Shown one piece after another: positions 9,801-14,250 of a stretch of 64,000 nucleotides of DNA. The DNA lies in contig JBHGBI010000002.1 in assembly GCA_041946925.1 (NCBI GenBank), forward strand, positions 3,299-67,298. The letters run 5' to 3'. A program made the position numbers and the translations under genes. The notes beneath the pieces are model-generated. The model worked only from the letters and a program-made list of their open reading frames with translations, had not been told where the DNA came from and did not search any database. The DNA is from Syntrophales bacterium (GTDB lineage Bacteria > Desulfobacterota > Syntrophia > Syntrophales > UBA4778). The first letter of the stretch is position 1. The number at the start of each line of letters is the position of its first letter.

Positions 9801-11375
9801 CTAGATTACCGTTCCCCCTTCGTACATTGTCATCAGATACTCGGGAATGCCCTCTCTGTCTGATCTCACGGCTTCGGAAAGATAATCCAGAATATCCTGT
9901 GCTGATATTCCGTCTTCGCCTTTTTCCTTCGCCGCAAGGTCTCCGGCCAGTCCATGGATGAATACTCCCTTTCTAACCGCTTCCGCAAAAGGCAGCCCCA
10001 TTCCGAACATGGCGGCTATTACCCCGTTCAACACATCCCCGCTGCCTGCTTTGGCCATCCCGGGATTTCCTGTCATATTGATGAAGACTCTTTTGTCCGG
10101 ATAACCGATAAGAGAATGTGCGCCTTTTAGAACAATGATCGTGTTCAGCGAGGCGGCGGTACTCTGTAGAATATCCATTTTGTTTCTGTTCAGATCGGGA
10201 ATGTTCATTTTTACGATCCGGGACATCTCACCGAGATGCGGTGTCATGACCGTCTGCGCCTTCCTCGCTTTCAAAATACCGGGATCTGATGAAATCGCCG
10301 TAATGCCGTCGCCGTCTATCAGGAGCGGTCGGGAAATTTCCGCCACCAGTATCTTGATCAGCTTCTGGGTTTCTTCATGGAGGGACATTCCAGGGCCGAC
10401 CACTACCATGTCCATTTTATCGGCGAGCGCAAGCAGGCTCTCCCGGTTTTCCATGGAGATGCTGCCTGCAGCAGTCTCCTTTTGGGGAACCATCACGAGT
10501 TCGCTCCCCCTCATTGCTATAAAGGAGGAAATGGAAGACGGCGCGGCCAGGCGTGAATAGCCTCCGCCCGCTTTCAGAAACGCATAAGCGGAGAAAAAAG
10601 GGGCCCCCAGATAATTCGCCGCTCCGGCGATAAAAAGCACCTCGCCGAAATACCCTTTATGGCCTGCCCTGCTCCTCGGCGGCAGGCATGCGGTCCTGTT
10701 TACGGCTGCTTTGATGGAATCACGATCGTAGTGTTCCGGGGGGAATGAGATATGAGAGATATACAGTTTACCGCACTGTTCATAGCCGGGGTACAGGATA
10801 TTGCCACGCTTCGGGAGGCCGTAGGTTATGGTGCAATCTGCTTTTACCGCCGCACCCAGAATTTCTCCCGTGTCTCCGTGGACGCCGGAGGGGATGTCGA
10901 GACTGAATACTCTTTTACCACAGTTGTTGATCAGCTCAATGGCGGATCTGTACAATCCTTCCACGGGGCGCGCCAGTCCTGTACCGAAAATCGCGTCCAC
11001 TACGGCATCCGAGTGGGCGACGTCGCCGGCGATATCCGCGGTCGATGTGATTCGTTGAACCTCCACCGGCATCCGGGAGATGATCTCGAAGTTCTTTCTT
11101 GCTGCTCCCTTGTATTGTCCGGGATCCCCCAGCAGACATACTTTAACCAGACCTCCAGTGGAAAGAATTTTCCTGGCGACGACAAACCCGTCCCCGCCGT
11201 TATTGCCCGTGCCGCAGAAGATCACGAATTTCCTGCCGGCAATGCCGAATTCCTCCCGGATGGCGAAACAGGAAGCCTGGCCTGCATTTTCCATCAGGAT
11301 GTCTTCTGTCAATCCGAATTGCTCCATCGCCTCGCGATCCAGCATCCTCATTTCGTCCACACTGCTGACTTTCAT
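9801..11375 (-). CDS. nnr: bifunctional NAD(P)H-hydrate epimerase / ADP-dependent dehydratase
   Basis: 524 aa. N-terminal YjeF_N domain (CGTGNNGGDG) plus a C-terminal carbohydrate-kinase-like domain (GNPGMAKAGSGDVLNG). Confidence 0.92.
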   Translation of the reverse strand: MKVSSVDEMRMLDREAMEQFGLTEDILMENAGQASCFAIREEFGIAGRKFVIFCGTGNNGGDGFVVARKILSTGGLVKVCLLGDPGQYKGAARKNFEIISRMPVEVQRITSTADIAGDVAHSDAVVDAIFGTGLARPVEGLYRSAIELINNCGKRVFSLDIPSGVHGDTGEILGAAVKADCTITYGLPKRGNILYPGYEQCGKLYISHISFPPEHYDRDSIKAAVNRTACLPPRSRAGHKGYFGEVLFIAGAANYLGAPFFSAYAFLKAGGGYSRLAAPSSISSFIAMRGSELVMVPQKETAAGSISMENRESLLALADKMDMVVVGPGMSLHEETQKLIKILVAEISRPLLIDGDGITAISSDPGILKARKAQTVMTPHLGEMSRIVKMNIPDLNRNKMDILQSTAASLNTIIVLKGAHSLIGYPDKRVFINMTGNPGMAKAGSGDVLNGVIAAMFGMGLPFAEAVRKGVFIHGLAGDLAAKEKGEDGISAQDILDYLSEAVRSDREGIPEYLMTMYEGGTVI

Positions 11376-11432
11376 TTCATCTCCCGCCGAGTCTTCTTGT
11401 CAATCCGATTGCTTCCGTAGCCGCAATCCACC

Positions 11433-11966
11433 TTAGCCCGCTGGAAGCCGGTATTTTGCCATAAAATAATCAAACGAGTGGTTTTTTGATCGTGCCACAA
11501 CCGGGGAGAAATATTTAAGGATTTCCATCATGAAATCGATTCTCGAATCGAATTTTTCAGGTACGAGCTCAATGAATTTTTCTTTGGTGATATCGTCTGT
11601 CGCCTTTAGAAAAGGAAGGCCCATTTCTTTTTGACTCGAATCATCCAGTCCTGCAAGATACCAGCTTTCGATTTCTTTTATTACTACCTGGACTTTATCC
11701 GTTTCAATATCCTGCAGCTTCATCCGGACATACTGTTTTTTGGCGGTCACGCACGGTTCCGTATCGATATCGGCTGCAATAATGTAATCGGCTCGGATCA
11801 CCCGGAGGCTTTCCAAAATTTTTATGAATTTCTCCCGCTTGAGATTTGCATAAGTGCGTACTTCCACCCTGTGGTAGAACTTTTCGAACATCGGCCTGAT
11901 AATAGAGTCAAAAAAGCGGGCATCACTGCCCCCTTCAACCCAGATAAATAGAAGGGAATCCTTCAT
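11433..11966 (-). CDS. small TOPRIM-like protein (DUF4435/DUF4276-like), partner of the upstream ABC ATPase
   Basis: 177 aa. An N-terminal strand plus acidic motif LLFIWVEGGSD (E11) is followed by IIAADIDTE (D66-x-D68) and EIESWYLAG. This is the Glu...DxD layout of a TOPRIM fold. It starts 5 nt after the ATPase stop. The family assignment comes from motif recognition only. Confidence 0.6.
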   Translation of the reverse strand: MKDSLLFIWVEGGSDARFFDSIIRPMFEKFYHRVEVRTYANLKREKFIKILESLRVIRADYIIAADIDTEPCVTAKKQYVRMKLQDIETDKVQVVIKEIESWYLAGLDDSSQKEMGLPFLKATDDITKEKFIELVPEKFDSRIDFMMEILKYFSPVVARSKNHSFDYFMAKYRLPAG

Positions 11967-11971
11967 CGCGC

Positions 11972-13216
11972 TTACAAGCCCAGCAAATCCTGTCTGAAGA
12001 GGTCCTCCATCCCAAGATCGTGCCGGAGAAACGTCTTTACTTCTTCTTTCTCGGCGGGTCTTATGATTGTGGAAAAACCTTCCTTGTCACGGGATGAGAA
12101 AAAAACGTTTTCCAGTTCCGCGTACTTGACGATTTCAGGGTGATGAGTGGTCAAAAGAATCTGTTTTCTTTCCGAGGCGTCTTTCATCATGCCTATCACC
12201 TTTGAGATGAGCAGAGGATGAATGCTTCGTTCAGGCTCTTCCATAATAACAAAGTCCTTATCTTCGAAATAAAGGACGATCACCAACGCAATGATGTTAA
12301 AAGTCCCGTCGGAAATAAAGGGAGCAGGAATACGGGCGCCTCCGGAATAGATCTCCCTGAGTTTGACCAGAAGAGTCTGGTCCGTAACCTTTTCCACCTC
12401 GATGTCCTTTATAAAGGGGAGAATATCTTTTACAAGATTAGAGAACTTTCTTTTCCTATCCCTGTCGCCCATTAATTTTTCCAGACATATCGCCAGATTA
12501 CGCCCGTCTTCCTCAAGTTCCGCCTTCCCCGCGATCGCGGCCGAACCCTTCGGGAGTTTCGGGTCAAAATTGTAAAAAGCGATCCTGTCAGAAAAGCGAT
12601 CGAGGCGGTGCGCGAACCCGAACAAGGATTTTTCCAGAAGCAGTGTGTCTGTCCCTATGCGCTCACTTTTCAAAAGAGCGGGGAAGATATCTCCGTTCTG
12701 AAGAGGGATGCCCTCGGGCACACTCAAGCGGTAATCGATTTTTTCTCCCCTGTGCTCCAGAATGCTGATCCCGTCTCCTATCCTGGTTCCCTTATCCTTT
12801 CCGGCAATACTGTAAAATTCGAGTCTACTTGAAAGTCGGTCCCTGGTTACTGCGAAGCGCTTTCCTTTACGAAAGCGGATCATGAACTCATACGTAACCG
12901 AAGGAACCCGGATCACCATGGTCCTGTCTTTATCGGGTGGAAGCAGGGAAAGATCGGGGTTGTAACTGATACTTATGGAAAGCGGCTCCGAAGAGGGCAG
13001 GTTCGCATTTCTGATGTACTCCGGCCCTCCCTGCATGGAGACGGCGTTGCCGAGTCCATGATCGGCGACATCCCTCAAAAACCTGAAGACTTGAATGAAG
13101 TTCGATTTTCCGGATGCATTGGTTCCGATCAGGACATTGAGCGCGCCCAAATGATCTATTTTAAGTTTCCTGAAACTCTTGAAATTCGAGAGTTCCAGTG
13201 AGCTGATGAATATCAT
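11972..13216 (-). CDS. ABC-type (AAA_15/AAA_21, OLD/SMC-like) ATPase
   Basis: 414 aa. Walker A GTNASGKS (31-38), signature-like SDG (302-304), Walker B FVIMEEPE (322-329), H-loop TTHH (356-359). A roughly 250-aa insert lies between the Walker motifs. Confidence 0.8.
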   Translation of the reverse strand: MIFISSLELSNFKSFRKLKIDHLGALNVLIGTNASGKSNFIQVFRFLRDVADHGLGNAVSMQGGPEYIRNANLPSSEPLSISISYNPDLSLLPPDKDRTMVIRVPSVTYEFMIRFRKGKRFAVTRDRLSSRLEFYSIAGKDKGTRIGDGISILEHRGEKIDYRLSVPEGIPLQNGDIFPALLKSERIGTDTLLLEKSLFGFAHRLDRFSDRIAFYNFDPKLPKGSAAIAGKAELEEDGRNLAICLEKLMGDRDRKRKFSNLVKDILPFIKDIEVEKVTDQTLLVKLREIYSGGARIPAPFISDGTFNIIALVIVLYFEDKDFVIMEEPERSIHPLLISKVIGMMKDASERKQILLTTHHPEIVKYAELENVFFSSRDKEGFSTIIRPAEKEEVKTFLRHDLGMEDLFRQDLLGL

Positions 13217-13227
13217 ACCCGTACCCG

Positions 13228-13548
13228 CTATCCGTGCAGTTGTTCATCCAGCCATGAGAGATAGTCCGTGTTCCCCTCCGTTATCGGAATGGCGACGATT
13301 TCCGGGACTTCATAGGGATGCACTTCGCGAATGGCATGTTCAAGGTCGGCGAAGATATCTTGTCTGCTTTTTATTATGCAGAGCCATTCCTCCGCCCGTT
13401 CGACCTTATTCTTCCAGCGGTAAATACTAGTTATTGGTCCTGTGATCTGAATGCATCCGGCCAGGTTCTTTTCGATGAGGGTCTGTGCGATACGTTCGGC
13501 GTCTTCTTTTCTTTCTGTAGTGGTGAATACTTGAATGAATTTCCTCAC
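13228..13548 (-). CDS. cutA: divalent-cation tolerance protein CutA
   Basis: 106 aa. CutA1-like sequence (AGCIQITGPITSIYRWKNKVE...HPYEVPEI). Confidence 0.9.
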   Translation of the reverse strand: MRKFIQVFTTTERKEDAERIAQTLIEKNLAGCIQITGPITSIYRWKNKVERAEEWLCIIKSRQDIFADLEHAIREVHPYEVPEIVAIPITEGNTDYLSWLDEQLHG

Positions 13549-13556
13549 TGCCGGCT

Positions 13557-14039
13557 TTACCCCTTCAATTTTTTCACAAGAATCGCGACTCTCCTGCCGA
13601 GCTTGGCAGCGTCTTCAGCCGTCTGTTGATCGGGTGCCCCGGTGCATGATATCCCGTAGTGGCCGCTCGCATCCAGCGGGTCGCCGACAACAATCATTCC
13701 GTATATCAGCAGGGCCTCGATGATCGACATCATGGTGGTTTCCTTTCCGCCGGAAGGATCTGCGGAGGTCGCAAAGGCCGCTCCGACCTTATTTTCCATT
13801 TTCTTCCGGAGCCCGACGAATTTTTCGAAAACGTCTTTTAAACCAGCGGCCATTGTACCGAAATAGACCGGGGATCCGGCGATGATTCCATCCGATTGGA
13901 CCAGATCATCTTTCATGATGTCCGATGCCTGCTTGACAATGCACCGTACTCCTTCCACCTCGCGAACTCCCCGTGCGATAGCTTCCGCCAGTTTTCGCGT
14001 GTTTCCCGTTCGTGAATAGTACATGATCAAGACCTGCAT
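13557..14039 (-). CDS. flavodoxin-like / NAD(P)H-dependent FMN oxidoreductase (WrbA-like)
   Basis: 160 aa. FMN-phosphate loop MYYSRTGNT and GSPVYFG. Confidence 0.8.
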   Translation of the reverse strand: MQVLIMYYSRTGNTRKLAEAIARGVREVEGVRCIVKQASDIMKDDLVQSDGIIAGSPVYFGTMAAGLKDVFEKFVGLRKKMENKVGAAFATSADPSGGKETTMMSIIEALLIYGMIVVGDPLDASGHYGISCTGAPDQQTAEDAAKLGRRVAILVKKLKG

Positions 14040-14250
14040 TACCGGTTCCCTCCTATAGAATTGTCCAGCGGATGAAAAGTTTATACCTTATTTCCTGAAA
14101 AATTAAAAATAAATTTGTCTTATCGGCAGGTTGCTGAAAAGGTTCTGCTTCGCAAGTTGTTCAATGGATTAGGCATCGGACTCAGGTGAGGCTGTCTATC
14201 CGGAAAGAGATCCCGGAAGGAATCATTGTTTTTCCTGCTCTTGAAGAAAT

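Follow-up and report, generated by a model that had tools for sequence, protein, structure and literature searches.

How did a pair of genes resembling the two halves of an antiphage system come to lie within a close-packed string of housekeeping genes, and what might it do there? The question is raised by a stretch of 64,000 nucleotides (nt) from a Syntrophales bacterium, hereafter the window, whose numbering is used for all coordinates unless a homologous locus is named; such loci carry L-numbers. On the minus strand of the window, two open reading frames (ORFs), designated A and B, follow each other almost without interval:

11972..13216, minus strand: gene A, ORF with an ATG start, a 414-residue SMC/OLD-type ABC ATPase
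11433..11966, minus strand: gene B, ORF with an ATG start, a 177-residue standalone TOPRIM-fold protein, divergent and DUF4276-like
11967..11971, minus strand: A–B spacer of 5 nt, sequence TAA-GCGCG-ATG

We read this pair as a defence or conflict module that has become permanently established in the core chromosome and is constitutively co-expressed there, a reading drawn by analogy with related systems, to which we give a probability of about 0.58. Sequence comparison indicates, furthermore, that the pair is an ancient, vertically inherited and operon-embedded resident of a Syntrophales subclade, and not a recent island. The number of homologues, more than 3,141 for A at E <= 1e-10 and 711 for B at E <= 1e-3 in a word-indexed search, marks both as genuine genes rather than chance ORFs. 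The 5-nt spacing, within which no Shine-Dalgarno sequence is evident, suggests translational coupling. The public records of this metagenome-assembled genome (MAG) include a protein 100% identical to A over its full length. Their annotation begins B at M26 (152 residues; 100% identical over 86% of the ORF), a start with which E11, G12, D15 and R17, the catalytic Glu included, would be lost; the longer 177-residue ORF is the correct one, since homologues cover residues 1–177.

The evidence for long residence comes from the genes and spacers on either side of the pair:

13217..13227, minus strand: cutA–A spacer of 11 nt, too short for a promoter
13228..13548, minus strand: cutA, CutA1 family (Pfam CutA1, 9.6e-37), the upstream neighbour kept in the Syntrophales clade
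11376..11432, minus strand: B–nnr spacer of 57 nt, holding a degenerate copy, about 41 nt long, of nnr nucleotides 34–75
9801..11375, minus strand: nnr, coding for a bifunctional NAD(P)H-hydrate repair enzyme with YjeF_N and Carb_kinase domains (Pfam, 9.1e-48 and 2.9e-48)

Syntenic loci were obtained by exact-protein look-ups (L001, L004, L005 and L011) and by a genome scan (L013 to L019). In every pair-bearing Syntrophales-type locus examined, cutA lies directly upstream of A, and nnr is found downstream of B wherever the contig continues, with a nitroreductase gene interposed in L001, L011 and L016; the genes further out are not the same from one locus to the next. A is 49–59% and B 52–61% identical to the window copy, compared with 58–63% for CutA, 59–66% for Nnr, 63–71% for the polyprenyl synthase and 53–61% for RimO, and the evolutionary rates of A and B fall within the range of those of their neighbours. 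In neighbour-joining trees of A, of B and of both combined (66 pairs), eight syntenic pairs form one exclusive clade, whose internal groupings (L001 with L011 and then the window copy, and L004 with L005) agree with the Nnr tree. The pairwise distances of A+B and of Nnr are closely correlated (r = 0.91, Mantel p about 6e-4, n = 7).

The composition of the pair might have told another story, that of a recent mobile insertion or genomic islet between cutA and nnr. Its GC content is 46.6% (42.9% for B alone) against 50.9% for the window, that is 4–5 points below the surroundings and in the 1st percentile of equal-sized windows, and elsewhere the family does move horizontally. However, every pair-bearing Syntrophales-type lineage examined has the pair in this slot, between neighbours that are only 57–71% identical; the clade is exclusive and has diverged together with Nnr; and no integrase or transposase was found around the pair in the window, nor any meaningful direct or inverted repeat flanking it, nor a tRNA near it. 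Moreover, GC at third codon positions in A and B tracks each host, from 0.49 to 0.82, and the pair differs in GC from its flanks by only about -3% in 10/10 syntenic loci, versus -10% in what we call the mixed group, namely the horizontally spread loci outside the Syntrophales and Methanoregulaceae clades (37 loci in the neighbour counts below). This host-tracking together with the small deficit fits long residence with amelioration, and what deficit is left is mostly a composition trait of the proteins, since it is seen across the syntenic loci and also in 30/33 Methanoregulaceae loci. A recent arrival is thus effectively refuted.

The initial annotation of this DNA had described two co-directional ORFs 5 nt apart, flanking gaps of 11 and 57 nt and the order flavodoxin–cutA–pair–nnr, all of which are exact, the neighbours being CutA1, FMN_red/flavodoxin and YjeF_N plus Carb_kinase by Pfam. 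Its impression by eye that the pair is AT-rich is borne out by the GC values above, as is its remark that integrase, transposase and flanking repeats are missing. It was mistaken on timing, in that it took the pair to be an insertion jammed into housekeeping genes; the slot is common to all pair-bearing Syntrophales-type lineages examined and the pair co-diverges with Nnr. It had also reasoned that housekeeping-like conservation of the locus throughout the lineage would speak against a defence system. In this respect the outcome is divided: the order cutA–A–B–nnr is kept, but sister lineages lack the pair and the wider family is patchy.

With regard to these sister lineages, seven metagenomic relatives whose Nnr is 61–64% identical lack the pair and also have no cutA ahead of nnr, and several of them keep the order nnr–polyprenyl synthase–RimO. 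Their slot upstream of nnr is taken by PfkB, AbiEii-like nucleotidyltransferase, ERCC4 and AAA_14 genes, or else by SurA-like genes; in L093 (1220-6004, locus coordinates), for instance, it holds a PfkB kinase, an AbiEii/DUF6036-type nucleotidyltransferase, an ERCC4-domain protein and an AAA_14/DUF4143 ATPase. As such contents replace the pair and cutA, the DNA ahead of nnr seems to be a variable site at which accessory genes accumulate. The Nnr tree is compatible both with a single gain that was lost once and with the pair never having been present in the sister lineage.

The expression of A and B is constrained by this packing. The gaps of 11 and 5 nt are too short for promoters, and the pair must therefore be expressed from the host operon, with flavodoxin and cutA upstream and nnr downstream. 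Two further features bear on this operon:

13557..14039, minus strand: flavodoxin-like FMN reductase gene, which probably opens the operon (Pfam FMN_red, 1.8e-13, and Flavodoxin models)
14079..14093, minus strand: promoter-like element AAATAAGGTATAAAC, with TATAAA at 14080-14085, conserved, about 45 nt upstream of the flavodoxin ATG

The flavodoxin gene upstream of cutA is kept at 72–77% identity in L013, L017, L018 and L019, and a GG/GATATAAA element is found at equal distance (about 45 nt) upstream of its ATG in the window, L013, L017 and L018. This conserved TATAAA element, which resembles a -10 box and is the sole basis of the proposal, is the likely promoter of flavodoxin–cutA–A–B–nnr. 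A generic scan for sigma-70 promoters and terminators gave no enrichment over shuffled sequences and did not flag the element at 14079..14093, a result that speaks neither for nor against it. The tight packing is itself conserved, the cutA–A gap ranging from 10 to 13 nt across the syntenic loci, and the B stop and the nnr start overlapping by 4 nt in L005, L014 and L017. The copy of nnr nucleotides 34–75 lodged in the B–nnr spacer of the window (local alignment score 39; shuffles with mean 15.6 and maximum 30, 0/2000 reaching the score) is absent from relatives, and the 57-nt spacer looks like the scar of a local duplication or rearrangement specific to the lineage of the window.

What, then, do the two genes encode? 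A matches the Pfam models AAA_21 (9.5e-28), AAA_15 (1.9e-18) and SMC_N (3.1e-10), and carries a Walker A motif (GTNASGKS, 31-38, with K37), a Q-loop (Q62), a signature (S302-D303-G304), a Walker B motif (FVIMEEPE, 322-329, with E326/E327) and an H-loop (H358, in TTHH 356-359). In an alignment of 48 sequences, G31, G36, K37, Q62, S302, G304, E326, E327 and H358 are invariant. The AlphaFold (AF2) model, with a predicted local distance difference test score (pLDDT) of 82.8, matches PtuA, SMC head, GajA and RecN folds in Foldseek with probability 1.0 and template-modelling (TM) scores of 0.4–0.53. By sequence none of the solved proteins is close, the GajA N-terminus being matched at 8.6e-6, PtuA at 7.5e-5 and AriA at 6.1e-5. 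Judging from motifs and model, A is an SMC/Rad50-type ABC ATPase with intact catalytic motifs, split by an insertion. The model predicts that this insertion, Insert-1 (about residues 76-170), is all-beta; it is the least conserved part of A (majority frequency 0.50 versus 0.72–0.79 for the ATPase lobes) and the only fast-evolving one. A loop at residues 221-240 (12497-12556, minus strand) has a pLDDT of about 40, yet its conservation is 0.78, with the family consensus PKLPKKxxPITGKxELEEDGSNLA; it can be regarded as a candidate partner- or substrate-binding motif that would fold on binding.

B, for its part, harbours the motifs VEGGSD (10-15), AADIDTE (64-70) and EIESWYLAG (98-106). E11, G12, D15, R17 and D66 are invariant in the family, position 68 is either D or N, and the segment E98-I-E100-S-W-Y is nearly invariant. 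The match to Pfam DUF4276 (PF14103) reaches 19.2 bits (E 0.0016), below the gathering cutoff of 30.2 bits. Among 55 members of the B family, weak matches were counted to DUF4276 in 38 (E <= 0.01), to DUF3226 in 19, to OLD-like_TOPRIM in 11 and to DUF4435 in 9, the best DUF4276 match being 7.5e-7, and some B homologues have a precomputed PF14103 match; on these scores, B appears to be a divergent relative of DUF4276 rather than a clear member. DUF4276 itself has been assigned to Toprim and described as homologous to Mad4 (PMC12065111). The AF2 model of B (pLDDT 92.5, predicted TM score 0.87) places strand beta-1 at 5-10, followed by E11, and strand beta-3 at 60-66, ending in D66-x-D68, and the TOPRIM arrangement consists of a Glu after strand 1 and a DxD after strand 3 (PMC12065111). 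The only significant fold matches of B in the PDB are class 2 OLD TOPRIM regions, the top five all being OLD C-terminal TOPRIM regions (6njv/6nk8; Foldseek probability 0.90–0.99). B is accordingly a predicted metal-dependent nuclease effector.

The placement of the pair among known systems was examined by matching each protein to the hidden Markov model profiles of PADLOC-DB. The best matches of A are HEC-01A models (PDLC04176, 04178 and 04182; E 3.5e-46 to 2.7e-45), which cover it nearly at full length. The best match of B is an HEC-01B model (PDLC04191, 7.8e-8, residues 28-106), weaker than that of A, and seven more HEC-01B models follow at 2.4e-4 to 1.3e-2. Weaker matches of the pair are to mad3/mad4, AbiLi and generic AriA/GajA models. 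HEC-01, for Hma-embedded candidate 01, is an ABC ATPase and TOPRIM pair described within Hma systems, with a metal site conserved with that of Bp OLD (Payne et al., bioRxiv 10.1101/2024.01.29.577857). The window pair shares with it the gene order, in which a small DUF4276/TOPRIM protein comes after an ABC ATPase on the same strand, with an overlap or hardly any gap, and keeps the predicted OLD-like metal site in B; it differs in lying outside Hma or any other defence system and in belonging to an anaerobe-specific clade (Syntrophales, Methanoregulaceae and others) fixed vertically in housekeeping operons. By architecture and profile, the pair can thus be assigned to the HEC-01 type, but as a distant subfamily. 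The architecture is therefore already catalogued, and it is the evolutionary behaviour that is new.

Other systems in which an ABC ATPase is paired with a TOPRIM domain were compared in turn. PARIS is likewise a split ABC ATPase and TOPRIM effector, with an AAA_15/21 ATPase in both cases, and with variable sensor regions beside conserved catalytic cores. In PARIS, however, AriB is a 35-kDa DUF4435 protein and the insertions of AriA are helical or coiled-coil (PMC11464382), whereas B has 177 residues and is DUF4276-like, and Insert-1 of A is all-beta. The match of A to solved AriA covers residues 258-380 only, and that to the PADLOC 'AriA' model (4.4e-27) has the same coordinates as the match to the generic AAA_21 model. 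For B, no DUF4435 match was found in Pfam and no AriB match in PADLOC. PARIS is typically carried by phages or satellites; the window clade, according to searches of phage, plasmid and IMG/VR collections, is not. Membership in PARIS was rejected, as DUF4435 is missing and B is half the size of AriB, and PARIS nevertheless offers, by analogy, the best mechanistic model for the window pair.

MADS resembles the pair in combining an AAA_15/21 ATPase, Mad3, with a DUF4276 TOPRIM protein, Mad4, and the PADLOC models mad3 and mad4 are matched at 1.1e-24 and 1.1e-3. Against the NCBIfam MAD3 equivalog, A scores 132.6 bits versus a cutoff of 420, and none of the companions mad1/2/5-8, which include a DNA methyltransferase, was found near the window pair; the methyltransferase encoded nearby is of the small-molecule UbiE/Methyltransf_11 type (Pfam). 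This low score and the missing companions led us to reject membership. OLD and GajA also combine an ABC ATPase with a TOPRIM domain bearing a Glu and a DxD, but as single fused polypeptides, whereas the window has two separate ORFs, and the structural similarity is modest (TM score about 0.4); with the pair split and no GajB/UvrD helicase partner found near it, OLD or Gabija membership was rejected as well. Among solved structures, those nearest to A in fold are the PtuA proteins of Septu and retrons (Foldseek E about 4e-14, probability 1.0), but their partner is the HNH nuclease PtuB rather than a TOPRIM protein, the TM scores are 0.4–0.46 and the sequence match is 7.5e-5. MADS3-4 and AbiL have been grouped with ABC ATPase and TOPRIM systems (PMC11464382). 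The pair is related to OLD and Gabija, from which it differs in being split, and is a cousin of AriA/AriB of PARIS, of AbiL and of Mad3/Mad4 of MADS.

The motif positions quoted for both proteins in the initial annotation are exact, and its view of A as an AAA_21/AAA_15 ABC ATPase holds on Pfam scores, invariant motifs and fold. The Glu...DxD pattern it saw in B is sustained by the fold and by the invariance of E11 and D66, but not as regards D68, which varies. It was right in finding B shorter than AriB, its comparison with OLD, Gabija and PARIS was apt, and Foldseek comparison of the two models led to OLD TOPRIM regions for B and to PtuA, SMC, GajA and RecN for A. Its description of the system as uncharacterised did not survive, both proteins having a published candidate, HEC-01, as their best PADLOC match.

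Beyond the Syntrophales, an exhaustive profile search with B among 1.84 billion representatives gave 1,339 clusters at 50% identity, 630 of them at E <= 1e-30, and the homologues are nearly all standalone proteins of 165–200 residues. A scan of species-representative genomes yielded 202 relatives, of which 80 loci were kept. The bacterial hosts are Syntrophales/Syntrophaceae, Bacteroidales, Planctomycetota, Dehalococcoidia, Nitrospirota, Atribacteria, WOR-3, KSB1, Latescibacterota, Chlorobiales and Aminicenantes, and the archaeal ones about 40 Methanoregula/Methanoregulaceae, Methanoperedens, Methanosarcinales, Thermococci and Archaeoglobaceae. Such a patchy distribution, spread horizontally over phyla and both domains, is the pattern of an accessory gene. 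The pairing itself is steady: in about 77/80 loci B follows A immediately on the same strand, with a gap of -4 to +9 nt in about 80/93. Two outliers have gaps of 1148 nt (L064) and 5068 nt (L086), in which the DNA between the genes may represent a mobile element or cargo.

A minority of mixed-group loci have defence-type neighbours (mad2, DpdJ, a type IIG restriction–modification system, BrxH and PD-T4-6). In L008 (1-14531, on a JGI 185-kb contig), a Transposase_31 gene lies directly upstream of the pair and an MmeI-type N6_Mtase/Eco57I gene, a Schlafen AlbA_2 plus HATPase_c_4 protein and a UPF0175 antitoxin-like gene are also present, mobile and defence-like surroundings that contrast with the housekeeping context in Syntrophales.

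The constancy of the pairing invites another explanation, in which the two genes form a selfish, toxin–antitoxin-like addiction cassette, the toxic nuclease B being restrained by A so that loss of A is lethal. The obligate gene order, the overlap, the translational coupling and the long retention outside defence islands would suit it, as would the sequestration of AriB by AriA in PARIS; the PDB depositors call AriA an 'antitoxin', and the Pfam description of AAA_21 mentions a type IV toxin–antitoxin system. However, an intact B stands beside an A with one or two frameshifts in several genomes, namely L035 and L080 (UBA MAGs) and L019, L054, L058 and L075 (MFD MAGs), and a toxin without restraint ought not to be tolerated, although these frameshifts may be sequencing errors; true pseudogenes would have a bearing on the toxicity of B in the absence of A. 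A simple antitoxin would, in addition, be far smaller and less elaborate than A, whose ATPase machinery is fully conserved, and co-divergence over about 40% protein divergence is explained no better by addiction than by benefit to the host. We regard such a cassette as quite unlikely. The frameshifts were also considered as a sign that A is dispensable, and this was set aside because most cases, L035 and L080 excepted, come from MFD MAGs, which we take to be long-read assemblies prone to indel errors.

A second fixation was observed in the archaea. About 30 pairs from Methanoregula and other Methanoregulaceae form a second exclusive clade in the neighbour-joining trees, and this fixation is independent of the one in Syntrophales. 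Here a conserved same-strand string consists of TspO, A, B, a flavodiiron protein, desulfoferrodoxin and TrkH, preceded by PFOR-beta and DUF5698/DUF2179, with TspO at position -1 in 23 loci and the flavodiiron protein at +1 in 25/28 of its Methanoregulaceae loci. The distances of A+B correlate with those of the flavodiiron protein (r = 0.66) and of TspO (r = 0.74; Mantel p <= 2e-4). The gaps around the pair are about 70 nt upstream and about 260 nt downstream, which makes separate transcription of the pair probable in these archaea. In L027-L092, the Methanoregulaceae loci, the pair stands at about 8.7-10.5 kb in locus coordinates, and a CutA homologue is found 7–10 kb upstream of it in about 13 loci.

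How far do these results fit a defence or conflict module resident in the core chromosome? A defence function of the window clade is plausible by analogy, all the named relatives being defence components. It is also favoured by the intact active sites, the obligate pairing, the sensor-like variability of Insert-1 and the accessory-type distribution with transfer between domains and, in the mixed group, by the -10% GC deficit and the loci beside a transposase or defence-type genes. In a study of cold-seep MAGs, HEC-01 was listed among the twelve most abundant candidate types, and one such representative was reported to shield E. coli B from at least one of T4, T5 and T7 (PMC12881386). Several observations nevertheless weigh against this role. 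Its basis lies in other systems and in distant members of HEC-01. In the E. coli assays of Payne et al., HEC-01 gave no protection (bioRxiv 10.1101/2024.01.29.577857), and the cold-seep protection is given in the text without quantification (PMC12881386). When the reference pair of Payne et al., P. agarici WP_060782633.1 and WP_060782632.1 from their Table S2, was compared with ours, A was colinear over its full length with the ATPase but only 20% identical (E 6e-16), and the B family aligned with the partner only over the DxD..ExE core (hhalign probability 48%); owing to this distant relatedness, the published phage assays are not directly transferable to the window pair.

The genomic setting of the family counts against defence as well. 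No family match was found in 50,697 phage genomes; plasmids gave only remote ATPase matches of at most 31% identity; and 2.9 million IMG/VR contigs contained only two distant A+B pairs (L100 6713-8468 and L101 6769-8504, locus coordinates, on putative viral contigs of 30–40 kb, with A 34–35% and B 27–35% identical). Within two genes of the pair, the neighbours of mixed-group loci are mainly metabolic or translational, such as def-fmt, IMPDH, glutamate synthase and an amino-acid kinase, and an association with defence islands as a rule of the family was rejected, only a minority of these loci showing it. Deep vertical retention at one slot in two lineages, at ordinary evolutionary rates, is, finally, atypical of defence genes, which usually turn over fast.

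In a rival reading, the pair was acquired anciently and co-opted for a host function, and would be no longer, or not only, antiviral. Its role could be, for example, stress-linked surveillance or repair of DNA or RNA in the manner of RecF and RecR, co-expressed with redox and metabolite-repair genes; RecF, an ABC ATPase, works with RecR, a TOPRIM protein. The fixed position and tight packing in Syntrophales (the narrow cutA–A gap, and the B/nnr overlap in three lineages), the exclusive clade co-diverging with host genes, the rates within the range of the neighbours, the absence of the family from mobile-element collections and the lack of defence neighbours at most loci all argue for such a co-option. 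So does the position of the Methanoregulaceae pair between TspO and flavodiiron protein–desulfoferrodoxin in more than 20 species, together with a flavodiiron protein gene two genes from the pair in a planctomycete (L006).

On the other hand, not every lineage of the order carries the pair, sister lineages whose Nnr is equally similar having neither it nor cutA beside nnr, and the family is patchy and has spread over many phyla and both domains. The redox theme amounts to two or three independent insertion events. As a family-wide property, a redox or oxidative-stress neighbourhood was rejected, being absent among the 113 neighbours of the 37 mixed-group loci, and its recurrence in Syntrophales, Methanoregulaceae and L006 may be chance. 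The Methanoregulaceae gaps suggest transcription apart from the redox genes, the variable, sensor-like insert fits a protein engaged in an arms race, and the named relatives all belong to defence. Co-option for a host function is on balance improbable, though it has more in its favour than an addiction cassette. Somewhat less probable still is its more specific form, in which strict anaerobes would have wired a nuclease module, an OLD-type machine put to a RecF/RecR-like use, into core operons, beside redox and damage-control genes, for housekeeping nucleic-acid surveillance or repair under stress; the neighbours in question are flavodoxin, CutA, nitroreductase and Nnr in the Syntrophales subclade and, independently, TspO, the flavodiiron protein and superoxide reductase in Methanoregulaceae.

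Returning to the resident defence module, which we prefer, a mechanism can be proposed on the model of its better-known cousins. By analogy with PARIS, OLD and Gabija, A would homo-oligomerise through ATP-dependent head engagement, and Insert-1 would provide the surface with which it senses a cue, either a foreign protein or a nucleic acid. A might keep B inactive until triggered, or might load B onto its substrate. B would then cleave nucleic acid, either DNA, or tRNA/RNA as in PARIS, using Mg2+ or Mn2+ at E11, D66, D/N68 and E98/E100, and such cleavage would stop the invader or the infected cell.

HEC-01-type pairs are reported to rank among the most abundant candidate defence types of anaerobic sediment microbes, and the locus supplies the residues K37, E327, E11 and D66, a candidate sensor surface in Insert-1 and a candidate partner-binding loop at 221-240. 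One large clade of HEC-01 behaves unlike typical defence-island genes, being almost never found on mobile elements and having been fixed vertically twice. This may be a case of a defence system entering the core genome of a lineage, with a bearing on how immune genes are retained and regulated. Alternatively, it may point to cellular functions for some of the 'defence candidates' picked out by homology and, should the co-option reading prove true, the pair would be an example of an immune module captured for the physiology of the cell.

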